The position numbers and the translations under genes are program-made. From Patescibacteria group bacterium (GTDB taxonomy: Bacteria; Patescibacteriota; Microgenomatia; UBA12405), in the NCBI GenBank assembly GCA_018902845.1, contig JAHIPV010000001.1:12124-76123 (forward strand): a DNA stretch of 64,000 nt. Direction: 5' to 3'. The notes under the pieces are model-generated. The model made no database searches, was not told the origin of the DNA, and was given only the letters and a program-made list of their open reading frames with translations. Below are positions 959-55,301 of this stretch, piece by piece (the stretch's first letter is position 1; each line of letters opens with the position of its first letter).

Positions 959-1600
959 ATGAATCAAGTACAAAATCTAAAAAAACTAGAAAATCTCAGT
1001 TATTTCGATAAAAACACTCTGTCGCAATATACTGATCTTTCTGATAATTCTCTCTATACAAATATCAATCGATGGATAAAAAATGAAAAAATTATCCAAC
1101 TCAAAAAAGGTTTATATGTCACCGGTTCTTATTTCAATAAACTTGCCGACAAAGATATTTATATTGAATTTATCGCCAACAAACTCAAAACCCCTTCTTA
1201 TCTTAGTTTAGAATATGTGCTCAACAAATATAGTATTTTGACCCAAGCTATTTTTTCTCACACCTCCATTACTCTTAAATCAAAAAAAACTTTTTCAAAT
1301 AAATTTGGAACTTTTCTTTACAAAAACATAAAAGACGATCTTTTTACTGGATATCAAATAATAAAAAAGGGCCAATTTGAAATTAAACAAGCTACAAAAG
1401 CAAAAGCTCTATTTGATTATCTTTATCAAAAAACCTGTAAAACTAAAGACATTACCAAAGGTCTTTTATTATCATATAGACTAAACCTTGACGAATTTAC
1501 CAATAAAAACATAAAAGAATTTTCAATTTATTGCCAAAAAGCAAAAATCAAAAAATACGAAACTTTACCCAATTTAATAAAAGAGCTACATGATTATTAA
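959..1600 (+). CDS. AbiEi-like antitoxin (type IV TA), putative
   Basis: ~210-aa protein immediately upstream of, and overlapping by 11 nt, an AbiEii-type nucleotidyltransferase toxin gene. Call rests mainly on operon architecture. Confidence 0.45.
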   Translation: MNQVQNLKKLENLSYFDKNTLSQYTDLSDNSLYTNINRWIKNEKIIQLKKGLYVTGSYFNKLADKDIYIEFIANKLKTPSYLSLEYVLNKYSILTQAIFSHTSITLKSKKTFSNKFGTFLYKNIKDDLFTGYQIIKKGQFEIKQATKAKALFDYLYQKTCKTKDITKGLLLSYRLNLDEFTNKNIKEFSIYCQKAKIKKYETLPNLIKELHDY

Positions 1601-2402
1601 AGAACTGGAAAAGATAGTCCAAGAAGAAAAAGCAAAAAACTCACTTGGTTTATATATACGCAACCTGCTTAAAGAATATCTTCAGGTTTACATACTCTAT
1701 TATATTTACACTTCAAAAGAGTATCAAAAGAACTTAATTTTTACCGGAGGAACATGTTTACGCCATTTTTATAATCTTGAGCGTCTTTCCGAAGATCTTG
1801 ATTTTGACTATATAAAAGAATTTGACACAAAAATACTGCAACAAAGCATAACTGATTTTTTTGCCAAAAAATACAAATACAAAATCCTAAGTTCCTTAAA
1901 ACAGCAAGGTAGACAACTCCTTTTAAAATTTCCTGTTTTGCATAGTTTGGGTCTAGCAACAAAAGAAGAGAGTGATTTACTTTATGTCAAAATTGATTTA
2001 TCAAAGAACCCATCAAAACATTACAAAAGTATAGTTAGTTCAAAAAGCAAATTTGGATTTAATTTTGTTGCCATACATTATGATTTAAGTAATTTAATGA
2101 CAGGTAAAATTCATGCTATTTTAACTCGCCAATTTCTAAAAGGCAGAGATTATTTTGATTTGCTTTTTTTCTTAAAAAATTCAACTCAGCCAAATCTCAA
2201 AAGATTATCTGATATCTTAAACCAAAAGATAACAAAGAAAAAGTTAGAAAAAATTCTGGACAAAAAAGTAGAAGAATTAACCACAAAATACAAAAATCAA
2301 TTTCAATCCGATCTAGCCCCTCTTATCAAAAACCCAGATACTTTAGATCTATACATCAACAACTACAAAAACGAATACCTCCGTAATAAAAAATACACTT
2401 AA
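1590..2402 (+). CDS. AbiEii/AbiGii-family nucleotidyltransferase toxin
   Basis: Motif IFTGGTCLRHFYNLERLSEDLDFDY matches the GGTAL...R.SEDIDF signature of AbiEii toxins. Confidence 0.65.
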   Translation: MIIKELEKIVQEEKAKNSLGLYIRNLLKEYLQVYILYYIYTSKEYQKNLIFTGGTCLRHFYNLERLSEDLDFDYIKEFDTKILQQSITDFFAKKYKYKILSSLKQQGRQLLLKFPVLHSLGLATKEESDLLYVKIDLSKNPSKHYKSIVSSKSKFGFNFVAIHYDLSNLMTGKIHAILTRQFLKGRDYFDLLFFLKNSTQPNLKRLSDILNQKITKKKLEKILDKKVEELTTKYKNQFQSDLAPLIKNPDTLDLYINNYKNEYLRNKKYT

Positions 2403-11330: not shown

Positions 11331-12044
11331 ATGCTTCTCACCAAAGAAAAAATCAATCAAAAAAAGGGAATAAAAGCCGAACAGACGGATCTTGTCGAAA
11401 CTATTTCAAAAGTCGATAAAACCAGCAAAAACCGTCGTTTTGTTATCATCGCTCTTTTAGTTACCATTGGCTTGTCCGCCATTTTTGCAATTTATGACCT
11501 AGTTAAAAAAACAACCCAAAACGGTAAATATACTGATTTTTTGTCAAAAATTTCCCTCTCTAAACCTCAAACCGATATACCAACAAAAGATATCTCAACA
11601 CCAAACATTGACATATCTAGCCTTATTGAAGAAAAAATTATCAATCATCAGGGTGTTTGGTCTTTTTACATCAAATATTATTCCTTCGCCTCGCCACAGC
11701 CTTCAGCGTCGGCGGGTTCTGATTCGGAAAAAATTATTTACACCAGAAACGAATCTGTTTTTTTCTCTAAAAACAATCCAAGCGAAATTTTAAAATCTCT
11801 AAAAGACCCAGATGATAAACAGGCAAAAATATTTACAAAAAACTTACCGGACGGTTTAGAAATCTATGAAAAAAATCAATCAACAGAAAATTCAATCGAA
11901 TCGCATCTTCTTATCATTCTTCCAAACAATAAACAAATCTTTATTCTTATTAAGACTACCGAAGTTAAAGACAATTCTCAGCTCCCATCCCTTATATCTC
12001 AACTCGTATCTGATATCTACTGGTCCCTCCTTCAATCAGACTAA
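11331..12044 (+). CDS. Hypothetical membrane-anchored protein
   Basis: 237-aa ORF with a single N-terminal TM (FVIIALLVTIGLSAIFAIY). No family recognised. Confidence 0.4.
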   Translation: MLLTKEKINQKKGIKAEQTDLVETISKVDKTSKNRRFVIIALLVTIGLSAIFAIYDLVKKTTQNGKYTDFLSKISLSKPQTDIPTKDISTPNIDISSLIEEKIINHQGVWSFYIKYYSFASPQPSASAGSDSEKIIYTRNESVFFSKNNPSEILKSLKDPDDKQAKIFTKNLPDGLEIYEKNQSTENSIESHLLIILPNNKQIFILIKTTEVKDNSQLPSLISQLVSDIYWSLLQSD

Positions 12045-14284
12045 TTTATTGTTGGTGTCGGGGTTGTTTTGGGCAAACATCTGACTCCATTCTCTGTTCC
12101 CTTAACAAAATAACCTTCTTTTCCACAAACCGTTGTCTTAACTATTCCCTCGGGCATTTGCCACTTCTCTTCTTCACGATTTTCTAGTATTTCCGTCATT
12201 ATTCTATTCCAAATCGGTGTTGCTCCCGAAATTCCCGAAGCTACCCAGCTCATCGGGCTACCATCGTTATTGCCTACCCAGCTGGCTACTAGCACTGACG
12301 GTGTCCATCCTATACACCAATTGTCTTTTAAATTATTAGTTGTACCGGTTTTTACCGCCACAGTCCTTTCCGGAATTTTTAACTTGGAATTAAAACCAAA
12401 AATAGGAGCCCTGGCCGTATCGTCACTCAAGGCTTCATTTATCAAAAAAGCTAATTCACTGGAAACAACCCTATTTTTGTCCGTCTCCTTTTCGTAAATT
12501 CTTTCGCCTAAATAATTTTCAACTCTTAAGATGGGATTAACTTCATTTTTTTTTCCTTCATTGGCAAAAATGCTATACGCCTCAGCCAGTTCAGTCATTT
12601 TTACTTCTCCCGCTCCCAGTGCCAAAGACAATCCAAATCTACTTCTATCTTTCCAGCTAGTGATCCCCATTTCTTCGGCCAAATCTATCATATCCATTAC
12701 TCCGTTTTTTTCTAGTAATTTTACCGACGGAATATTTAAAGACGAAGCTAGGGCGATTTTTAAAGTAACAGTTCCCATGTATTTCCCGTTGTAATTTTGT
12801 GGAGAATAGGGATCTTGTCCGGCAATTTGGTAAGTGATACGGTCATCGTCTATCAGTGAAGATAGTGTCCATCCTTTTTTCAAAGCTAAAAGGTAATTAA
12901 TCGGCTTAATTGAAGACCCCGGTTGTCTCAATGCCACTGTTACGTTGAATTTTCCGTCAACATCGTTCGTATAATAATCTTTTGATCCCACCATTGACAA
13001 TATATCTCCGTTTTTTGTGTCTATGATTAATACTGCTCCGTTGCTGATTTTCAATTTTAAGACTTTTGCTATTTCCTCTTTCACAATTTTTTCTGCCATT
13101 AATTGTTTTTCTCTGTCTAAGCTTGTAACAATTCTAAGTCCTGATTTTTCAATATTTTCAAAATTTAGTTTTTCTTCTAGATACTTTTTGACATAAAAAA
13201 CAAAATGTGGAAATTCTATATTTTTAATATTATTTTTTATTTTTATTTCTTCTCCTGACACCTTTTTTGCTATCTCTTCATTTATAAAACCGGCCTTCAC
13301 CATTTCATCTAACACTCTTTTTTGTCTTAACAATGCAAATTCCGGATTTTTTCCATAAGGAGAATAAGAGCTTGGCGCCGCTGGTAATCCTGCCAAAAAA
13401 GCTGCTTCAGCCAAATTTATTTCCCAAACGTTCTTATCAAAATATTTAAGAGATGCTTCTTGCACTCCGTAACTTTCTCCTCCATAAGCCACTTGGTTAA
13501 AATATCGTTCTAGTATTTCATTTTTTGGCAGTTTCCATTCCAAAGCTATCGCCAAAACTGCTTCTTTCAATTTTCTCTTCCATGTTTTTTCACTACCCAA
13601 AAATACATTTTTAACTACCTGTTGGGTTATGGTAGATCCTCCTCTTGGTGGGAACTGGTCTTTTCTTAAGTTGTAAAGTATCGCCTGAAAAACCCCTTTT
13701 AAAGAAAATCCCGAATGGCGGTAAAAATCTTTGTCTTCAATAGAAATTGTTGCCCATACTAAAGTTTGTGGAATTTTAGACAGGGGAATCCAAGTTCTAT
13801 TTTCATCTTCATAAAATTTGTAAAGTAAACTCCCGTCTCTATCCACTATTTTGCTTGACATTGGTGGGGGAGTATAAATTTTTTCAATATCGGGTAAATC
13901 AATCAAAATTTCTTTATAGAATATATAAATTCCAAAACTAAAAACTCCCATCAACAGCGACCCCAGTAACCAAACAATCCACATCCAATTTGCTTTTTTC
14001 TTTGCCTCGCCATTAATCCTTTTCTTTAATCTTTTCTCTTTGCCTCGCCAAAGTTTCCAACGACGGCGGGTTTTCCTCTTCTTCATTTTTCTTTTAAAAC
14101 AATTTTCCCAATTATTAAATTTCTTTATTCGTTTACTTATCTTGTTTTTCTTTGTTTTTTTATAATTCTTAATTCTTAACTCGTAATTCTTAATTAATAT
14201 CATTAACAGTCCAACAATAAGTTTTATTATCCTGTAAATCGGCCTTCCCATCCTTATCAAAAAACTTCTTATCCAAACAAACAT
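12041..14284 (-). CDS. Class A penicillin-binding protein (PBP1A-type transglycosylase/transpeptidase)
   Basis: GT51 motifs EDKDFYRHSGF, GGSTITQQ and RKLKEA; transpeptidase SSIKP...SLN...KTGT. Start uncertain: a basic N-terminal extension suggests an alternative start near 14086. Confidence 0.8.
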   Translation of the reverse strand: MFVWIRSFLIRMGRPIYRIIKLIVGLLMILIKNYELRIKNYKKTKKNKISKRIKKFNNWENCFKRKMKKRKTRRRWKLWRGKEKRLKKRINGEAKKKANWMWIVWLLGSLLMGVFSFGIYIFYKEILIDLPDIEKIYTPPPMSSKIVDRDGSLLYKFYEDENRTWIPLSKIPQTLVWATISIEDKDFYRHSGFSLKGVFQAILYNLRKDQFPPRGGSTITQQVVKNVFLGSEKTWKRKLKEAVLAIALEWKLPKNEILERYFNQVAYGGESYGVQEASLKYFDKNVWEINLAEAAFLAGLPAAPSSYSPYGKNPEFALLRQKRVLDEMVKAGFINEEIAKKVSGEEIKIKNNIKNIEFPHFVFYVKKYLEEKLNFENIEKSGLRIVTSLDREKQLMAEKIVKEEIAKVLKLKISNGAVLIIDTKNGDILSMVGSKDYYTNDVDGKFNVTVALRQPGSSIKPINYLLALKKGWTLSSLIDDDRITYQIAGQDPYSPQNYNGKYMGTVTLKIALASSLNIPSVKLLEKNGVMDMIDLAEEMGITSWKDRSRFGLSLALGAGEVKMTELAEAYSIFANEGKKNEVNPILRVENYLGERIYEKETDKNRVVSSELAFLINEALSDDTARAPIFGFNSKLKIPERTVAVKTGTTNNLKDNWCIGWTPSVLVASWVGNNDGSPMSWVASGISGATPIWNRIMTEILENREEEKWQMPEGIVKTTVCGKEGYFVKGTENGVRCLPKTTPTPTIN

Positions 14285-14333: not shown

Positions 14334-16439
14334 TCAATCTGTTTTTTCTACAACTGGACAATCTAAGCAAATAAAATAGCCTCCCGCATCTTCTATTACT
14401 GTTCTTTCTTGCCATTCTGCGTTGGGAATATCTTCTCCCTCTTTAACAATTTGACCGGTATCTTTATTAACCACCACTGTTCTTTTTGTAGGCATACTTT
14501 TTGTAGGCAAAAATTCTTGTTTAAAATATTCATATCTCGAATCACATCCTTCTTCCGGAATCAGTCCTCCGGTTAAGTTACAGATATGCATACCAACTAT
14601 ACTAGCGGGCATTACCGGCTTTTTAACCAACTTATCTTCCAGTATTTTTGTCATAACATCATTCCAAATCGGTGAAGCTCCAGTTATTCCGGATACCACC
14701 CATCCCATTTTTGAATTATCATTATTTCCTACCCAGCTAGATACTACATAATCAGCAGTAAAACCTATTGTCCAGTTATCTCTCATATCGTTAGTTGTAC
14801 CCGTTTTCACTGCCACTTCCGGATGGTCTTTTATGTTCAACAATGATCCTCTACCAAATACCATTGATCTGGCGCCATCATCAGATAAGATATGTTGAAT
14901 CAAAAAAGCCGTTTCTCTAGACAAAACTCTTTCTCCTGGTATATATTCATACTCGTCAATCACCTCTCCGTTCCTATCCCTTACTTCCAAGACATAATTT
15001 AAGTCTTGCTTGATTCCCATGTTAGCAAAAACACCAAAAGCGGTATTCATATCTATCATCTGCACTTCTCCTCCTCCTAAAGTTAACGACAAACCATAAT
15101 TAGAGGCATCTTTAAAGGTACTGATTCCCATGCTTCTAGCAAAATCTACAAAAGTTTCTACTCCGTTTATTTCTAGCATTTTTACTGCCGGAATATTTAA
15201 TGAATTTCCCAAACAATTTCTCAAAGATTGTATTCCATAATAAGACCAACCGTAATTAGTCGGGCAATAATCTTTTTGGTTTATCATCTTAAAACAAGTC
15301 TCTTTATCACCAAAAACCGATGCCGCCGTTACATTTCCAAGTTCCAATCCCAAAGCATAATTCAGTGGTTTGATCGAGGAACCGGGTTGTCTTAATGCTG
15401 TTGTCACATTAAACTGCCCATTAATATCATTGGCAAAATAATCTTTTGACCCCACCATTGCCAGCACTTGTCCGGTTTTAGCCTCTGTCACCAACACTGC
15501 CCCGTTCGTTACATCGTATTTTTCGATTTTAGCAATTTCAGAGGCTACACTTGTTTGTACATAATCCTGCAATTCCATATCTAAGGTAGTTGTCACTTTC
15601 AAGCCTCCTTCCTGGATTTTTTTTAGTCCATATTTTTCAGTCAATTTTTCTCGCACCAAAAGTACAAAATGAGGAGCCAATATTCCTTTTTTCGAGACGA
15701 AGTATTTAAGTTCCCCTGTTTTGGCATTTTCCATTTCTTCTTTGCTTATAAATCCTTCTTCGTTCATTCTTTGCAAAACCAATTCTTGTCTTTTTTTTGC
15801 CGCTTCAGGATGAGCAAAAGGGGAGTATTGTGTCGGTGATGCCGGCAATCCGGCAATCAAAGCTGACTCGGCTAAATTTAATTCTGATACGTTTTTGTCA
15901 AAAATACCTTTTGCCGCCGCTTGTGCTCCCCAAAGAGTTCCGCCATATGGAGTTTGGTTGAAATACATTTCAAGAATTTGATTTTTCGAATACAAAATCT
16001 CCACCATCCCGGTTAACAGCGCCTCTTTGATTTTTCGCTTTATTGTTCTTTCTGGAGTTAGTAAGGCATTTTTTACTAATTGCTGGGTTATGGTCGATCC
16101 CCCTTGCAATCTTTTTTTAAAAATCGTTCTATATAATCCTCTGGCAATTCCTTTCAGATCGAATCCAAAATGTTTGTAAAATTTAGTGTCCTCAATCGCC
16201 AGAGTTGCGTTTTTTAAATCTTTTGGTATCTGGTCCAAATCTACCGGAACCCTATTCTTGTCAGAGAATATCTCATACAAAAGTTTTCCTTTTCTGTCAA
16301 AAATTAGGGATGACTCAGGGTATTCGTGTGTAGATAATTTTCTCGGACTTGGTAAATCTCTAAGCAAAAAAACAACCAACAAAAAAACCAACCCCAATAC
16401 TCCCAAATATATCCACCTCTTTTTTTTACTCTTCTTCAT
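14334..16439 (-). CDS. Class A penicillin-binding protein (PBP1A-type), second tandem copy
   Basis: EDTKFYKHFGF, GGSTITQQ, SSIKP, SLN and KTGTT motifs. N-terminal TM anchor. Confidence 0.85.
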   Translation of the reverse strand: MKKSKKKRWIYLGVLGLVFLLVVFLLRDLPSPRKLSTHEYPESSLIFDRKGKLLYEIFSDKNRVPVDLDQIPKDLKNATLAIEDTKFYKHFGFDLKGIARGLYRTIFKKRLQGGSTITQQLVKNALLTPERTIKRKIKEALLTGMVEILYSKNQILEMYFNQTPYGGTLWGAQAAAKGIFDKNVSELNLAESALIAGLPASPTQYSPFAHPEAAKKRQELVLQRMNEEGFISKEEMENAKTGELKYFVSKKGILAPHFVLLVREKLTEKYGLKKIQEGGLKVTTTLDMELQDYVQTSVASEIAKIEKYDVTNGAVLVTEAKTGQVLAMVGSKDYFANDINGQFNVTTALRQPGSSIKPLNYALGLELGNVTAASVFGDKETCFKMINQKDYCPTNYGWSYYGIQSLRNCLGNSLNIPAVKMLEINGVETFVDFARSMGISTFKDASNYGLSLTLGGGEVQMIDMNTAFGVFANMGIKQDLNYVLEVRDRNGEVIDEYEYIPGERVLSRETAFLIQHILSDDGARSMVFGRGSLLNIKDHPEVAVKTGTTNDMRDNWTIGFTADYVVSSWVGNNDNSKMGWVVSGITGASPIWNDVMTKILEDKLVKKPVMPASIVGMHICNLTGGLIPEEGCDSRYEYFKQEFLPTKSMPTKRTVVVNKDTGQIVKEGEDIPNAEWQERTVIEDAGGYFICLDCPVVEKTD

Positions 16440-30836: not shown

Positions 30837-30908
30837 CCAGCGGTAGCAAAGCGGTTATGCAATGGTCTGTAAAACCATCCTAGGTAGGTTCGACTCCTAC
30901 CCGCTGGA
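30837..30908 (+). tRNA. tRNA with anticodon GUA (Tyr), class I (short variable loop)
   Basis: Acceptor CCAGCGG/CCGCTGG, anticodon arm ATGGT-CTGTAAA-ACCAT, variable loop CCTAG, T arm GTAGG-TTCGACT-CCTAC. The anticodon arm differs from the tRNA-Cys at 3853 by a single C->T. Confidence 0.6.
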
Positions 30909-30951
30909 CAAAAGTCATTTTTCTCTTTTTTTCTGTATAATTAACTCCACT

Positions 30952-32874: not shown

Positions 32875-33532
32875 TATAATACCTCCACACTTAACTTACT
32901 GTTGCCTAATTGCAAAAAACCTCCAAAAGATTTCCAAATCCGAGGAGTTTTTAATTTGTCTAAAGCAACTAAGTTAAAAGTACCTTAACATCAATCAATG
33001 TGCGTTTTCATTAGTCATGATTGTTAGTATCAGAGGATGAAATCCTGATGATTTTGTTTACAAAATCTATTAGGATATTTTTTCAAAACTTTTTTCAGTT
33101 TATTTAAAACTGAACCCCTTGCAGATTAAAACCTGTCAAGGGTTGATACTAAGAGTTTGATCGTGGCTCAGGGTGAACGCTGGCGACGTGCCTAAGACAT
33201 GCAAGTCGAACGAGATTCGTATTTTACATAAGGAAATTACATAATAATTTTCTTGTGTAGAATACGATGACAGTGGCGAACGGGTGAGTAATAAGTACGA
33301 ACGTACCTCTAAGTGGAGCATAGCCTCGAGAAATCGTGGATAATACTCCATAGTCCTCGTATTTCATACAAGGAAATTCAAAGCACTAATATCTAAACTC
33401 AAAACTTTTTTGTTTTGGATTTTGAATATTTAGATTTTAAATTTATTTAGGATTTCGATATTAGAATTTAGGATTTTCTCGCATGGAATGCGAGGTAAAG
33501 ATTTATCGCTTAGAGAGCGGCGTACTCGCTAC

Positions 33533-33565
<33 letters not shown>

Positions 33566-34750
33566 GATGACGGCTACCGGCTCTTAGCGGAGGGTCCGGC
33601 ACAATGGGACTGAGACACGGCCCATACACCTACGGGTGGCAGCAGTTAGGAATATTGCGCAATGGACGAAAGTCTGACGCAGCGACGTCGCGTGTGGGAT
33701 GACGGCCTTCGGGTTGTAAACCACTTTTATTTCGTCATCATGGCGAGATGAATAAACAGCTACTAATTACGTGCCAGCAGTCGCGGTAATACGTAAGCTG
33801 TAAGCGTTACCCGGTTTTATTGGGCGTAAAGGGTCTGTAGGTGGTTTTTTAAGTCCTATTTCAAAGACTCCGACTTAATCGGAGAAAGGGGTAGGATACT
33901 GAAAGACTAGAGTTATATCGGGGTTACTGGAATTTATAGCGTAGGGGTAAAATCCGTGGATACTATAAAGAACACCAAGGGCGAAGGCGGGTAACTAGGT
34001 ATACACTGACACTGAAAGACGAAAGCTAGGGGAGCAAATCAGATTAGAGACCTGAGTAGTCCTAGCTGTAAACGATGTCTGTTAGTTCTACGAGCTTATG
34101 CTTGTGGGATGTAAGCTAACGCGTTAAACAGACCGCCTGGGGAGTATAGCCGCAAGGCCGAAACTCAAACGAATTGGCGGGGAGGCGCACAACCAGTGGA
34201 GCATGTGGTTTAATTCGATACGAAGCGATGAACCTTACCTGGGCTTGAAATCCTGTTTATGTTTTTCCCGAAAAGGAAAAACTCAGTGGCAGGACAGCTG
34301 TTGCATGGCTGTCGTCAGCTCGTGACGTGAGTTGTTCTCTTAAGTGAGGTAACGAGCGCAACCCCTATTCTGTGTTATTTTTTCACAGAAGACTGCTCAG
34401 CATTATTTTTGTTGGGAGGAAGGAGGGGACGACGTCAAGTCAGCATGATGCTTATGTCCAGGGCGACACACATCCTACAATGGGAAGTACAATGAGTTGC
34501 AATACCGCGAGGTGGAGCTAATCTATAAAACTTCCCTCAGTTGGGATTGCAGGCTGAAATTCGCCTGCATGAACTTGGAATTGGTAGTAATCGCAGATCA
34601 GCAGACTGCGGTGAATACGTTCTCGCCTCTTGCACACACAGCCCGTCAAATCAGCAAAGTTGAGGGTGCCCGAAGGACTCCGATCAATCGGAGGACTAAG
34701 GTAAATTCAGCGATGAGGGTTAAGTCGTAAATTGTTGCGACTCATGGAAG

Positions 34751-35471
34751 TAATTCCATGAACAAATCTGGCTGTATCGGGGAAATCTAAGTCCTAGTGT
34801 TAAAATTAGGATATGACAACCGCGAGGGAACCCGACCGTTTTTCTAAAAAACAACCGGGACTCCGTAGAGACTATACGCCAGCGCCTCAAATCAGTAAAT
34901 CTTATTTACTTGGAATTTTGCACGACGCCACAGAAAGAAAAACAACTTTTAGAATTAGTCAAAAAAGTGAAATTTTTGTCAAATTTATTGCCAAAGAAAT
35001 CAAAAGACTTGGTTCTGGAGCTTGGGTCTATAAAGAAGGGAAAAACAGAAATGTCTACGTTGTAGAATTTTCAAAAAGTTTTCTTAAAGGATTCAAGATA
35101 AAAACCAGACAAGACAAAATTGACTACATTCGAGGTTATTTTGATTCTGAGGGAGGTATTGCACATCATCCAAAAGTTCGTTTTTATATTTATTTTTCTC
35201 AAAAAGATATAAATGATCTTAAGGAAGTTAAGCAATGTCTCAAAGAATTAAATATTTCTTGTGGAAAAACGCATAATCCAAGCAAAAAAGTAGATCCTGA
35301 TTATTGGCGATTTTATATTTTAAGCAAATCTTACAAAGATTTTGCTAAAATTATTGGGTCCTTCCACCCAATCAAGAATCGTCTTTTGAGGATGAAGAGA
35401 TAGTCCGTACCCTTGGAAACAAGGGAATCGATTTTATTAGTTTTTTTAATAATTAAGTAAAATCAAATGAA
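34751..35471 (+). mobile_element. Intervening sequence (probable group I intron) in 16S rRNA at the E. coli ~1506 site, carrying a homing endonuclease ORF
   Basis: Insertion between conserved ...GGTTAAGTCGTAA and CAAGGTATCCGTACTGGAAGGTGCGGATGGATCACCTCCTT. Contains ORF 34813..35403. Confidence 0.6.
34813..35403 (+). CDS. LAGLIDADG-family homing endonuclease (intron-encoded)
   Basis: LLGILHDATE and IRGYFDSEGG are the two LAGLIDADG motifs of a single-chain homing endonuclease. The ORF lies wholly within the 16S insertion. Confidence 0.65.
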   Translation: MTTAREPDRFSKKQPGLRRDYTPAPQISKSYLLGILHDATERKTTFRISQKSEIFVKFIAKEIKRLGSGAWVYKEGKNRNVYVVEFSKSFLKGFKIKTRQDKIDYIRGYFDSEGGIAHHPKVRFYIYFSQKDINDLKEVKQCLKELNISCGKTHNPSKKVDPDYWRFYILSKSYKDFAKIIGSFHPIKNRLLRMKR

Positions 35472-43538: not shown

Positions 43539-43955
43539 ATGAATTATTTCAACAAAAATTCACTAGACTATAAATTTATAGAAAAGTTCGAGGCTGGTTT
43601 AGTTTTAACCGGCTCAGACGCAAAATCATTGCGCACCCAAGGTATTCAATTTGGTGCCGTCAAAGTCGAGATAATAAACAACCGTCCTTTTTTGATTAAC
43701 TTAGATATTCCACTTTATAAATTCACCTCAAAAAATACTCTCTACGATACTACCCGCAATCGCGCCTTGCTCTTAAATTACAAACAAATCGCCAAACTAA
43801 TTTCCTACCGCAAGCAAAAATATATGATTATACCCATCTCAATTTACATCAAAAACAATTTCTTCAAAGCCGAAATTGGCATTGGCCGCAAAATGCGTAA
43901 ATACGAAAAACGCCAAAAAATAAAAGACAAAGAAATGAAGAAAAAACTTGGTTAA
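43539..43955 (+). CDS. smpB: SsrA-binding protein SmpB
   Basis: FEAGLVLTGSDAKSLR...TTRNRALLLNYKQI...KAEIGIGRKMRKYEKRQ SmpB signature blocks. Confidence 0.8.
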   Translation: MNYFNKNSLDYKFIEKFEAGLVLTGSDAKSLRTQGIQFGAVKVEIINNRPFLINLDIPLYKFTSKNTLYDTTRNRALLLNYKQIAKLISYRKQKYMIIPISIYIKNNFFKAEIGIGRKMRKYEKRQKIKDKEMKKKLG

Positions 43956-44057
43956 TCCAATAATTCATGTTTCTTCAAAAAAGCTTTCCCGGAACCCGTT
44001 TTTAAGTACTTCTCAAATTTAATAGCAACTTTTCTGTCCGCTCCCAGTCTATCAAAA

Positions 44058-44132
44058 AAAAAGAGGACCTGTCCTGTAGTTAAAAACGAAAAGAGGACCT
44101 GTCCTCCGTAGCTCCAGTTCACTGGAGCGAAG
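44058..44132 (-). terminator. Tandem intrinsic terminators for the minus-strand transcript
   Basis: Two copies of AAAGAGGACCTGTCCT. On the minus strand each forms a GAGGA-CAGG-TCCTC hairpin followed by a T-run; a CTCCAGTGAACTGGAG hairpin lies just upstream. Confidence 0.45.
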
Positions 44133-44464
44133 GAGGAGATGCTCAGGTATGACCCGAGGTCCAAAAAACGATTTAAAAAACTTACTACAAGCTTAACTTG
44201 CTTAAAACTTAATCTTTGAAAAACAAAACAAGTCAATTTTTCCAAAGTGTCGATTGTTTGTGATTCTACTCACTCTTAAATAATTCAAGAATCGAGACTC
44301 AAATTATCGTGTTCCAGTTTAGTTGACACCCTTACTTATTCCCTCTGGAATAGAAAATAAAAGGATGACTCTCTCGCTTAAGCCTAAGCTACAGCAAGAT
44401 TTAAATTGAAATTGCTACCGGTAGAATAACCGACACCACTTTCAACTCTCGAAAGATTAGCCCC
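44085..44464 (-). ncRNA. ssrA: Candidate tmRNA (ssrA), tentative
   Basis: Minus-strand 5' end GGGGCTAATCTTTCGAGAGTTG resembles the tmRNA 5' tRNA-like end. It is followed ~50 nt later by a short reading frame AAT TTC AAT TTA AAT CTT GCT GTA GCT TAG GCT TAA (tag ...NFNLNLAVA with tandem stops). Convergent with smpB. The 3' tRNA-like end could not be identified. Confidence 0.25.
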
Positions 44465-44633
44465 AGCAAGAGCTAGGACATTTCTTAAAGCACTGCCGAA
44501 TGTATTGGCATGTTTTTTTTGATTTTGTTTTACGGCTGTTAATCAAAGCCGGCTTGCAGTTTTTTAAAGTGCATTTTCTGTCGATGCAATTACATCTCCT
44601 TGAGCACAAATTATACCAAAAATTTCGCCAAAG

Positions 44634-45683
44634 TCAATCCTTTATGTCTCTTTCCATTCTATCCAGTCCTATCCATATTATTATATTAAAAATCAGTCCA
44701 AACACAGCTGAAAATTGCTCAAAATAAAATCTAAAAATAGACGATAAAAATATACTTACCAACAATCCTCTCTGAAAAAACCCTAATCCTTCTCTTTTTT
44801 GTTTTCTCCAAATCAACACTAATCCAGCCACAAACATCCCCGCAATCAAAGTATCAGAAAATATCTTCATCGTTAGCATCAAGCCATGTGTTTTTGAAAA
44901 CATAAAAGTATTTTTATAGATATTTACCGCTTCTCCCGGGTCAAAATGAAGAAATATTCCAACAGTGCTAAATAATCCTTCTAAGATATATCCGGCAGAC
45001 AAAAGCAGTAACAAACTCGTTATTGTCTTTCTTTTAAAAATTTTATGATATCCGAAGAATTTTAATTTTTTCCACAATAGATTTGAAGATCTAATTTTTT
45101 TATTTTTTTTACTTGGCAGTTCCACTATCATTTTTCTCAAAGCTATAGAAAGATTATTTATTTTTCCACTTGTTTTTCTCTCCAGTTCTCCCAGCTTTTC
45201 TAATATTTCCTTTTTTTCTCTATTTTCAAAATCTCTTTCTGCAATTTCTTCTAACCCGTTAATTATTTGATAAAGCAGGCTTTTTACGTCTTTTGTCTGT
45301 ATTTTTTCAAAATATCTATATAGCAAAAACATCAATATAAAAAATACATACATAAACACAATTGCAGGTTGAAAAAAATAATCATTATCATGTGATAAAA
45401 ATTTACCTATTTCATCAATAAACCATCCCAAACCAACCCCAAAAATTATCGACGCTTTTTTTCTGGTTTTTTCTCCATGAAAAACCAAAGTCAATATCAT
45501 TCCAACAACCATTGCTAATCCTCCCCACAAAACATGGGCAACGTGCCATTTTTCATTACTGATTTCCGGATATCCGGTTAATTCCAAAAATAATCGTGTT
45601 CCCAGTAAACTGCCAACGGCCGAGATCATTATTATCAACAACATTTTGCTTCCGCTTTCTCTCTTTACCAATTTCAACTTCAT
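44634..45683 (-). CDS. Hypothetical polytopic membrane protein
   Basis: 349 aa, >6 predicted TM helices plus a central charged cytoplasmic segment. No family recognised. Confidence 0.45.
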   Translation of the reverse strand: MKLKLVKRESGSKMLLIIMISAVGSLLGTRLFLELTGYPEISNEKWHVAHVLWGGLAMVVGMILTLVFHGEKTRKKASIIFGVGLGWFIDEIGKFLSHDNDYFFQPAIVFMYVFFILMFLLYRYFEKIQTKDVKSLLYQIINGLEEIAERDFENREKKEILEKLGELERKTSGKINNLSIALRKMIVELPSKKNKKIRSSNLLWKKLKFFGYHKIFKRKTITSLLLLLSAGYILEGLFSTVGIFLHFDPGEAVNIYKNTFMFSKTHGLMLTMKIFSDTLIAGMFVAGLVLIWRKQKREGLGFFQRGLLVSIFLSSIFRFYFEQFSAVFGLIFNIIIWIGLDRMERDIKD

Positions 45684-53509: not shown

Positions 53510-54082
53510 ATGCCTGTTCAAAAAAACAAACAATCTTTTTTCTTTCTTTTTCTAATTGCCCTTTTTTTTATTCTTTCTTCTATTTATGTCTATTCCTATC
53601 TTTCTTCAAAAATATCAAAAGAAATGGTTGTTGATAACAGTTCAAGTTTTTATATCCCAACTGTCACCAACATTCCGGAGCCATCCATCTTTCCGTCTAT
53701 TACGCCAGCCGGTATAACCGGACCATATCTAAAAACTTTTTATTCAGATATTGACAATTTTGAAATCACATATTTTTCTACTCGCCAATTATATGAAGAC
53801 AAAGATGGCACCTCTAACCGCTATGTTTTTGCCAAAACCGGAGGTACAAACTTTGTAGTTCATGTTGGTGAAAGTTGGTCATGGATTCATCCGGACAGGC
53901 AATTTACCAATGATTTAAAAATTGCCGGCTTTGACACTTTCAGATACGATACAACTTCTCAGACAATTTTTGATTTACAAAAAGACGATACAAAATATAC
54001 TCTTCAATGCATTCACAATGGTATTGAGTCTCTCAAATCCGAATGCCTCGATTTTGTCCAAAGCTTCAAGCTAACAAACTAA
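53510..54082 (+). CDS. Hypothetical membrane-anchored protein
   Basis: N-terminal TM (FFFLFLIALFFILSSIYVYSYL) and ~150-aa extracytoplasmic domain. No family recognised. Confidence 0.4.
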   Translation: MPVQKNKQSFFFLFLIALFFILSSIYVYSYLSSKISKEMVVDNSSSFYIPTVTNIPEPSIFPSITPAGITGPYLKTFYSDIDNFEITYFSTRQLYEDKDGTSNRYVFAKTGGTNFVVHVGESWSWIHPDRQFTNDLKIAGFDTFRYDTTSQTIFDLQKDDTKYTLQCIHNGIESLKSECLDFVQSFKLTN

Positions 54083-55301
54083 ACCCAATCTCTCTTTTTC
54101 TTTTTCCTTTATACTCAAACTCAACTTTCACAATTCTTGCTTTTTTCTTTAATTTTCTAAAATTTTTATCTCCCATATTCTCCGGCCATTCAACACAGGC
54201 AATCACGCCGGTTTTAAATAAATCCAAAAATCCAATCTCATCAAACTCAAATTCCTTACTTAATCTATACAAATCCATATGCAAAAATCTTTTATAGTTT
54301 TGCTTGTCCTCCATAGCTTTAGCGAAGGAGGAAATTTTAATATTTGAATTTTGAAGTTGTTTTGAATTTGAGATTTTAGATTTTAGATTTAATTTGTATT
54401 CATTACAAATAGTAAAAGTAGGGGACACAATCCTTTTTTTTATCCCCAAAATTTTTCCAATCGCTCTGCTAAAAACTGTTTTTCCTGCTCCTAGCTCTCC
54501 ACTCAAACAAAACACAACCAGCCGACTGTCATTCCGACCGAATCCGCCAGCTGGCAAAAAAGGATCACCCTGAGCCCCCCCAGCGTCATCCTGAGCGTAG
54601 CGAAGGATCCCCCCGGACAACATCTTCTTAAAAATAAACCTCGCAATTCTCCCTGTTTCTTTTTCTGAATTCGATATAAATTTTTTGGCCGAGCCAATTA
54701 CCATGTCTCCTTTTCTCAAAACTTTCACTTCCGCTTCGGTTGCATCAATCACCGTTGACGGTTTATTCCTTGGTAATCTTCCTGCATCCGCTACTAGATC
54801 AACCATATTTTTTTTCTTTTTTGACAAAATATTCAAAAACGATTTAACCGAATAATGCGGTGATCTCCCCGAAAGATTAGCCGATGTTGCCGTAATTGGT
54901 TTTTTTAAAATATTTACTAAATCCAAAATATATTTACTCTCGGGGATTCTTATTCCCAAAGTCCCATCTTCCGCCTCTATTCCCTTTGCAACTTTTCGTT
55001 TTCCTTTATTCACCACCGTAAAAGGCCCGGGTAATAAATTCTTATAAATTCTTTTAGCCATTTCTGATAAATCCACATATTCTTCGGCCATTTTTTGGCT
55101 AGTTACTGCTATCGAAATTGCCTTTCCTGTCCATCTATTCTTAAAAGCCAGTAATTTATCTACGGCTTTTTGGTTACAAGCATCCACGGCCAAAATATAA
55201 ACAGTATCCGAAGGAAACAGCACCAATCCTCCGTTTTTTATCACTCTAATCGTTTCTTTCAAAACACTTTTATGGTTTTTTGCTATATCCAAAATTTTCA
55301 C
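54066..55301 (-). CDS. Fused L-threonylcarbamoyladenylate synthase (TsaC/YrdC domain) - TsaE (YjeE P-loop ATPase) protein, with two in-frame repeat insertions
   Basis: N-terminal YrdC domain (NGGLVLFPSDTVYILAVDACNQKAVDKL...GIRIP...ATSANLSG). C-terminal TsaE domain (LSGELGAGKTVFSRAIGK...SPTFTI). The linker ...RYAQDDAGGAQGDPFLPAGGFGRNDSRL... is encoded by element 54536-54618, and ...NSNIKISSFAKAMEDKQ... by the AT-tailed element 54300-54400. Confidence 0.7.
   Translation of the reverse strand: MKILDIAKNHKSVLKETIRVIKNGGLVLFPSDTVYILAVDACNQKAVDKLLAFKNRWTGKAISIAVTSQKMAEEYVDLSEMAKRIYKNLLPGPFTVVNKGKRKVAKGIEAEDGTLGIRIPESKYILDLVNILKKPITATSANLSGRSPHYSVKSFLNILSKKKKNMVDLVADAGRLPRNKPSTVIDATEAEVKVLRKGDMVIGSAKKFISNSEKETGRIARFIFKKMLSGGILRYAQDDAGGAQGDPFLPAGGFGRNDSRLVVFCLSGELGAGKTVFSRAIGKILGIKKRIVSPTFTICNEYKLNLKSKISNSKQLQNSNIKISSFAKAMEDKQNYKRFLHMDLYRLSKEFEFDEIGFLDLFKTGVIACVEWPENMGDKNFRKLKKKARIVKVEFEYKGKRKREIGFSLLA
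54300..54400. repeat. Family B element (GCGAAGGAGG + tandem gattttagattt tail) inside tsaC-tsaE, in-frame
   Basis: gctttagcgaaggaggaaattttaatatttgaattttgaagttgttttgaatttgagattttagattttagattt. Compare 53205-53260 and the 16S V2 expansion 33395-33470. Confidence 0.6.
54536..54618. repeat. GC-rich palindromic element (family A) inside tsaC-tsaE, in-frame
   Basis: ctgtcattccgaccgaatccgccagctggc...caccctgagcccccccagcgtcatcctgagcgtagcgaaggatccccccgg. Confidence 0.75.

Follow-up and report, generated by a model that had tools for sequence, protein, structure and literature searches.

The G3·U70 pair of the acceptor stem is the textbook single-base-pair identity element of tRNA. In tmRNA, this third acceptor pair has been named as the AlaRS determinant and called "completely conserved as G-U" (PMC3985003). 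The locus described here lies in a stretch of 64,000 nucleotides from a Patescibacteria group bacterium (the window, to which all coordinates refer unless another locus is named) and carries a candidate tmRNA gene, ssrA, next to smpB. Its third acceptor pair is A3-U70. We asked whether this gene is a functional tmRNA, whether the altered acceptor end is peculiar to it or shared by its relatives, and which synthetase would charge such an RNA.

Identification of the ssrA gene and its homologs

We identified a full-length match to the standard tmRNA family of Rfam (RF00023, model positions 1-374) on the minus strand at 44599..44131, with 63.5 bits and an E value of 1.9e-22, exceeding the gathering score of 47 by only 16 bits. 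A permissive family search of 43800-44900 returned RF00023 as the sole match at E <= 10, with no permuted tmRNA family, and the parts of the gene are colinear, running from the 5' acceptor strand through the tag to the 3' acceptor strand, an order unlike that of the permuted forms (RF01849-RF01851, RF04321), whose acceptor piece precedes the coding piece. A sequence-only reading of this DNA had proposed a tmRNA convergent with smpB, suggested the Infernal tmRNA models as a check, and suspected a divergent or permuted gene. The convergent tmRNA is borne out by the RF00023 match above the gathering score and by more than 70 related loci with adjoining smpB, and the gene has the standard one-piece form. 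It is an ordinary, functional-looking one-piece tmRNA of which the variant is clade-wide, and we are highly confident that the window locus is a functional one-piece tmRNA with a non-canonical acceptor identity.

The features of the locus are collected in Table 1. The predicted promoter combines a -35 element TTGACT (44637-44632), an extended TG (44618-44617), and a -10 element TATAAT (44615-44610) with a spacer of 16 nt, and 10 nt separate the end of the -10 element from the mature 5' end. The RNA begins with GGAGAUGUAAUUGCAUCGAC at 44599, and its 3' part reads GGAC-CUCGG-GUCAUAC-CUGAG-CAUCUCC-U-CC to 44132; C74 and C75 (44133-44132) are encoded, and the terminal A of CCA is absent from the gene. 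The 7-bp acceptor stem is paired in 80/80 sequences and directly stacked on the T arm, each of whose 5 stem pairs is formed in 79-80 of the 80 sequences with 4-5 pair types apiece and compensatory changes. A canonical T arm and acceptor, which had been thought missing, are thus both present (T stem and loop 44158-44142, CAUCUCC 44141-44135). For PK1, 93% of cells were paired in a covariation test, with 25 double-compensatory cells as against 7.8 in shuffles (0/500 as high), and shifting the partner in a slide control lowered pairing to 23-45%. The PK2-PK4 region was aligned to RF00023 with low posterior probability. In the 3' trailer, the long hairpin is formed by 2 copies of GGACAGGUCCUC pairing with each other (predicted -30.6 kcal/mol, z = -3.8). 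The proposal of tandem terminators here holds insofar as 44105-44058 contains 2 copies of the 16-mer GGACAGGTCCTCTTTT with a T run after each, but what is predicted is 1 hairpin with U9 rather than 2 terminators. The smpB gene lies 180 bp from ssrA on the opposite strand and ends about 100 bp from the terminator, as had been stated.

Table 1. Coordinates of ssrA, its parts, and smpB in the window
Feature	Position	Strand	Details
smpB, SsrA-binding protein, 138 aa	43539..43955	+	PF01668; convergent with ssrA
3' trailer, predicted intrinsic terminator	44054..44128	-	hairpin 44128-44111, long hairpin 44107-44062, U9
ssrA, one-piece tmRNA	44132..44599	-	G1 = 44599, U73 = 44134; RF00023 and 80 full-length homologs
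3' acceptor strand CAUCUCC and discriminator U73	44134..44141	-	CAUCUCC 44141-44135, U70 = 44137, U73 = 44134
T arm	44142..44158	-	stem CUCGG/CUGAG, 7-nt loop GUCAUAC
Tag stops	44378..44386	-	UAG 44386-44384, GCU, in-frame UAA 44380-44378
Tag frame, 41 codons, product ANTFGSALRNVLALAGANLSRVESGVGYSTGSNFNLNLAVA	44387..44509	-	resume codon GCC 44509-44507
Pseudoknot PK1	44519..44551	-	stem 1 CGGCU/AGCCG, stem 2 UUGAUU/AAUCAA; just 5' of resume codon
5' acceptor strand GGAGAUG	44593..44599	-	A3 = 44597; 7 Watson-Crick pairs with 44141-44135
ssrA sigma-70-type promoter (predicted)	44610..44637	-	11/12 consensus matches, TG present

Of 8 independent assemblies (JGI, ENA, Logan), 7 contain the window RNA without a single base difference, and the eighth has the same ends and tag; the unusual acceptor bases are therefore not assembly errors. 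The window SmpB is 100% identical to an "SsrA-binding protein" of Patescibacteria group bacterium, and its next relatives, at 60-68% identity, belong mostly to Candidatus Shapirobacteria of the Candidate Phyla Radiation (CPR). A scan of genome contigs with the SmpB sequence alone gave no match, whereas an SmpB alignment succeeded and gathered 78 loci from genomes and 80 from metagenomes. Searching with nhmmer, using the window RNA and then a profile, we found full-length matches in 79 loci, and acceptor states were counted in 80 full-length homologs. Homologous ssrA adjoins smpB in more than 70 loci, nearly all convergent and just downstream of smpB, and the neighboring smpB is always intact. 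RF00023 matched 18 of 20 sampled relatives at the gathering score, the 2 misses and the lowest scorers being long-tag forms like that of the window.

Tag reading frame

The tag frame has no start codon and ends in LAVA before its stops. In the alignments, its GCC at 44509 falls on the resume codon of the Rfam consensus and on the invariant AU followed by GCY of the relatives, the resume codon being Ala (GCY) in all aligned sequences. Starting at this aligned codon, an open frame of 27-41 codons is found in 53/53 aligned homologs, and 5 closer relatives have one of 34, 43, or 45 codons. The tags of relatives end in YALA, LAFA, AVC, and similar, and their length differences are multiples of 3, with conservation at the protein level. 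Where ARAGORN calls a relative (L091, and L004 after in silico mutation), its predicted start agrees with ours. The 41-codon tag is real and unusually long, the commonest tag length in the current tmRNA database being 10 residues (PMC11915505). The tag-like frame AAT TTC...TAG GCT TAA had been recognized before, and it is indeed there, with 2 stops and an end at 44378; the expected length of about 10 codons did not hold.

To judge from the aligned sequences, the tag diverges far more quickly than either SmpB or the tRNA-like domain. At 3 loci (L171-L173), SmpB is 93% identical to that of the window, yet the 34-codon tag, AKNTFGVNLAGDFSGYANNALAGAQTPALAVAYC, is very different. Further, many Shapirobacteria-type sequences have tags whose last residue is cysteine (..AVC, ..ATC, ..AYC, ..AFC) where alanine would be usual, including those of L010, L012, L014, L022, L035, L038, L040, L055, L058, L061, L065, L066, L068, L071, and L171-L174. 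The idea that these endings are tied to U73 through CysRS was dropped after a check by eye, in which they correlated with neither G73 nor U73.

Acceptor identity across the clade

The sequence-only reading had proposed looking for a G3-U70 pair in the tRNA-like domain. In place of G3·U70, the window has A3-U70 (44597/44137), with U73 rather than A73 as the discriminator. Across the 80 homologs, A3-U70 is present in 65, combined with U73 in 34 and with G73 in 31, and the remaining 15 have G3·U70 with A73; no other combination at 3:70 and 73 was found among the 80, and position 73 of the A3 sequences is only ever G or U. All 7 acceptor pairs of the A3 set are Watson-Crick, and therefore no G·U has been relocated elsewhere in the stem.

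In the neighbor-joining tree of SmpB, the outgroups are all G3/A73 and the Shapirobacteria-type clade is A3, with 3 loci (L048, L091, and L026) nested inside it as G3/A73. In a neighbor-joining distance tree of concatenated SmpB and tmRNA, both short markers, built with the acceptor end masked, the A3 sequences were non-monophyletic in 100/100 bootstraps. At least 3 changes at position 3 were required, each accompanied by the matching change at position 73, and A73 was regained in every lineage that went back to G3·U70. The 2 states can be found in close relatives, the tmRNAs of L091 (G3/A73) and L020 (A3/G73) being 85% identical. Position 73 changed at least 19 times, and about 16 of these changes are flips between G and U within the A3 clade, seen even between tmRNAs that are 97.8% identical; in the A3 background, A or C was never found. 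The flips at position 73 are all transversions, a pattern unlike neutral drift, and selection on this position is visible. A covariation partner for position 73 was sought in the RNA, leader, and trailer columns, and none was found.

The bacterial alanine set comprises A73, G2-C71, G3·U70, and G4-C69, and A3-U70 abolished alanylation in tested systems (PMC9976931). According to the same source, all known prokaryotic tRNA-Ala share G1-C72, G2-C71, G3·U70, and A73. Set against this published set, the A3-U70 and U73 of the window mean that the clade tmRNAs lack both specific alanine determinants, by sequence, while the other signs of function are kept. In a literature search chiefly outside subscription journals, we found no report of a natural A3-U70 tmRNA or of a non-alanine tmRNA, and natural tmRNAs without G3·U70 may already sit unremarked in the tmRNA database.

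Charging of the clade tmRNAs

The most likely reading, which we favor on balance, is that canonical AlaRS recognition would no longer apply to these tmRNAs. Positions 3 and 73 are strictly coupled in independent switches, which points to 2 discrete identity states rather than a relaxed AlaRS. Further, A73 appears to be selected against in the A3 background, which disfavors a relaxed AlaRS because relaxation gives no cause to lose A73. Besides AlaRS, only SerRS and LeuRS work without reading the anticodon, and LeuRS requires A73. Bacterial tRNA-Ser is a class II tRNA, and SerRS charges it without using the anticodon. We lean slightly towards charging by another anticodon-independent synthetase, for which SerRS would be the likeliest candidate.

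The bacterial serine set consists of G73, C72, G2-C71, and R4-Y69 together with a long variable arm. Of these, G73 is not needed in vitro, its main role being to keep out LeuRS and TyrRS (PMC9976931). The A3 tmRNAs retain C72, G2-C71, and G4-C69, with position 73 being U in the window and G in 31/65. Their first 5 acceptor pairs, GGAGA/UCUCC, match tRNA-Ser genes of related CPR loci, all of them from outgroup lineages rather than the A3 clade; across the CPR loci retrieved, a 5' GGAG was present in 13/18 tRNA-Ser genes versus 0/40 other tRNAs. Against serine stands the U73 of 34/65 A3 tmRNAs, including that of the window, in place of the G73 of tRNA-Ser. Trans-translation has no strict requirement for alanine, according to PMC3985003, which cites Nameki 1999. 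That SerRS charges the clade tmRNA with serine is a tentative proposal, which we would put at somewhat less than an even chance. We hold with the same reserve that the Shapirobacteria-type tmRNA may have undergone a natural switch from Ala to Ser via G3->A and A73->G/U, with some lineages having switched back.

The tRNAs and synthetases of the clade itself were sought in several ways. ARAGORN on 1.13 Mb of loci gave no tRNA-Ala, and only 1 tRNA (Tyr) from the Shapirobacteria-type loci. A tblastn search for the AlaRS and SerRS of the clade with approximate E. coli queries gave no useful match, Pfam on the 10 largest window proteins found neither synthetase, extension of the contig past the window start yielded only the same tRNA-Cys, and the region 3' of the 16S gene had no spacer tRNAs. 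Clusters of 2-5 tRNA-Ser genes lie 1-6 kb from ssrA/smpB in outgroup CPR loci (L074, L123, L126, L127, and L145). The lineages with such clusters carry the canonical G3·U70 tmRNA, and A3-type loci had no cluster near ssrA.

The strongest competing explanation is that alanine is still loaded, by a clade AlaRS that, perhaps aided by SmpB, would not need G3·U70 to recognize the tRNA-like domain, in the manner of human mitochondrial AlaRS with its tRNA. Every studied tmRNA is alanylated, the clade keeps G1-C72, G2-C71, and G4-C69, the resume codon is still Ala (GCY) in all sequences, and there is mitochondrial precedent for recognition by AlaRS independent of G3·U70 (PMC6451123; PMC9976931). However, A73, a bacterial AlaRS determinant, is lost in 65/65 A3 sequences and regained in those that returned to G3·U70, and a merely relaxed AlaRS would leave the selection against A73 unexplained. 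Switches between relatives with tmRNAs as close as 85% identical would further need AlaRS and all tRNA-Ala to toggle together, against the conservation of G1-C72, G2-C71, G3·U70, and A73 reported for all known prokaryotic tRNA-Ala (PMC9976931). We regard continued alanylation as a substantial possibility that falls a little short of even.

It is very improbable that ssrA is decaying or non-functional, with rescue taken over by another system or a second tmRNA. Such decay would fit a change that abolishes alanylation in tested systems (PMC9976931), the missing ARAGORN call, and the modest Rfam score of 63.5 bits, but conservation or covariation is seen in the acceptor stem, T arm, and PK1, about 70 diverged genomes retain the resume codon and an open tag frame, the adjacent smpB is always intact, a near-consensus promoter and a terminator are present, and position 73 is under visible selection.

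An RNA starting from GGGGCU at 44464, divergent or permuted and with a tag of about 10 residues, is the least credible explanation and can practically be set aside: the GGGG string and the tag end are where they had been placed, but position 1 of the covariance model falls at 44599, RF00023 is the sole family match at E <= 10, GGGGCU falls within the variable middle part of the tag frame and is not conserved among relatives, and 44599-44593 pairs perfectly with 44141-44135. The strings quoted in the sequence-only reading all occur at their places on the minus strand, with GGGGCTAATCTTTCGAGAGTTG beginning at 44464. The 5' end it had seen there (GGGGCTAATC) is a chance GGGG within codons 16-17 (G-A) of the tag frame, and the true start, GGAGAUG at 44599, lies 135 nt upstream. 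Its span of 44058-44470 consequently leaves out the first 129 nt of the gene, comprising the 5' acceptor strand, helix P2, PK1, and the first 13 tag codons.

Proposed pathway

The ssrA of this Shapirobacteria-related Patescibacteria (CPR) bacterium encodes a one-piece tmRNA that very probably acts with SmpB. On the basis of known tmRNA behavior, RNase P would cut off a leader of 2-4 nt, and the 3' trailer would be removed and CCA completed. The tmRNA would then be aminoacylated, bind SmpB and EF-Tu, and enter stalled ribosomes, where it would donate its amino acid before the 41 codons are translated, marking the protein for degradation. The unusual step would be charging, the AlaRS determinants G3·U70 and A73 being replaced by A3-U70 and U73.

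Comparison with known systems

The window gene resembles standard tmRNA (RF00023; E. coli 10Sa RNA with SmpB) in the tRNA-like domain built from its 5' and 3' ends, the T arm, the long helix P2, PK1 right before the resume codon, the Ala resume codon, the hydrophobic tag end (LAVA), the double stop, and the neighboring smpB. It differs in carrying A3-U70 and U73 where standard tmRNA has G3·U70 and A73, in its 41-codon tag, its unencoded terminal A of CCA, and its T loop GUCAUAC, and in being missed by ARAGORN.

Engineered acceptor mutants of E. coli tmRNA offer a parallel in that a few acceptor-end nucleotides set the charged amino acid (Nameki et al. 1999, as cited in PMC3985003). According to that article, the mutants include G3·U70 changes and a switch from Ala to His, and a non-alanine tmRNA supports trans-translation in vitro. 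Unlike these laboratory constructs, the change in the clade is natural, fixed, and reversed more than once.

Bacterial tRNA-Ser is similar in its acceptor, with G1-C72, G2-C71, A3-U70, G4-C69, and A5-U68 of the tmRNA equal to those of tRNA-Ser(UGA/GGA/GCU/CGA) in related CPR loci, and in the G73 shared by 31/65 A3 tmRNAs; helix P2 of tmRNA has also been described as oriented like a long variable arm (PMC3985003). The tmRNA differs from tRNA-Ser in having neither a true variable arm nor a D arm (e.g., C11-G24).

Mitochondrial tRNA-Ala/AlaRS pairs likewise include an alanine acceptor without G3·U70 (PMC6451123). These pairs keep a relocated G·U or a co-evolved enzyme (PMC6451123), whereas the clade tmRNA has no acceptor-stem G·U, and unlike in the mitochondrial pairs, its change toggles between close relatives.

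Detection by annotation tools

ARAGORN, which had also been proposed as a check, made no tmRNA call either in the window or in any A3-type relative. A3 was considered as the cause of this failure and rejected, since in silico restoration of G3 and A73 rescued only 3/65 sequences. ARAGORN also found only 6/15 G3-type sequences in isolation, and with so few rescues the failure is therefore general and not diagnostic. These genes escape ARAGORN, and the long-tag forms lie near or below the Rfam threshold; under-annotation of tmRNA in these genomes is therefore probable, and the RNA may have been wrongly scored as absent.

Mechanically called open reading frames at 43952-44245 (minus strand) overlap the 3' part of ssrA and the terminator, and in 1 public assembly, a 70-aa gene was called at the ssrA 3' region (L163, 2914-3126). 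Open reading frames overlapping the ssrA 3' part or terminator are probably spurious protein calls, made because the tmRNA was unannotated.

Other features of the window

A tRNA-Tyr(GUA) gene of 72-73 nt with a 5-nt variable loop was identified at 30837-30909 on the plus strand and at L095 676-749, its first pair being C1-G72 (CCAGCGG.../...CCGCUGG-A). We take this form to be the class I type of archaea and eukaryotes rather than the bacterial type with a long arm and G1-C72. The 16S rRNA gene (33145-34772, plus strand) is 1628 nt long and, compared with the bacterial model, carries insertions of about 36 and 121 nt; neither a 23S gene nor spacer tRNAs were found after it in the window. A 411-aa protein encoded at 54066-55301 (minus strand) fuses Sua5/TsaC and TsaE domains, 2 t6A-synthesis functions. 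Tandem genes for class A penicillin-binding proteins, each with transglycosylase and transpeptidase, are encoded at 12041-14284 and 14334-16439 (minus strand). A gene of the toxin-like AbiEii family was identified at 1590-2402 (plus strand), with a second copy about 9 kb upstream of the window start (L159 218-1063) and PIN and Bro-N genes nearby.

Implications for tmRNA identity

A clade-wide A-U at 3:70 together with the loss of A73, in a conserved tmRNA linked to SmpB, contradicts the rule of invariance. The alternatives are that the amino acid at the start of the degradation tag has naturally changed or that the clade AlaRS has a new mode of recognition. If the serine reading is true, this would be the first natural non-alanine tmRNA, and the delivered amino acid would be evolutionarily interchangeable between 2 anticodon-independent synthetases.
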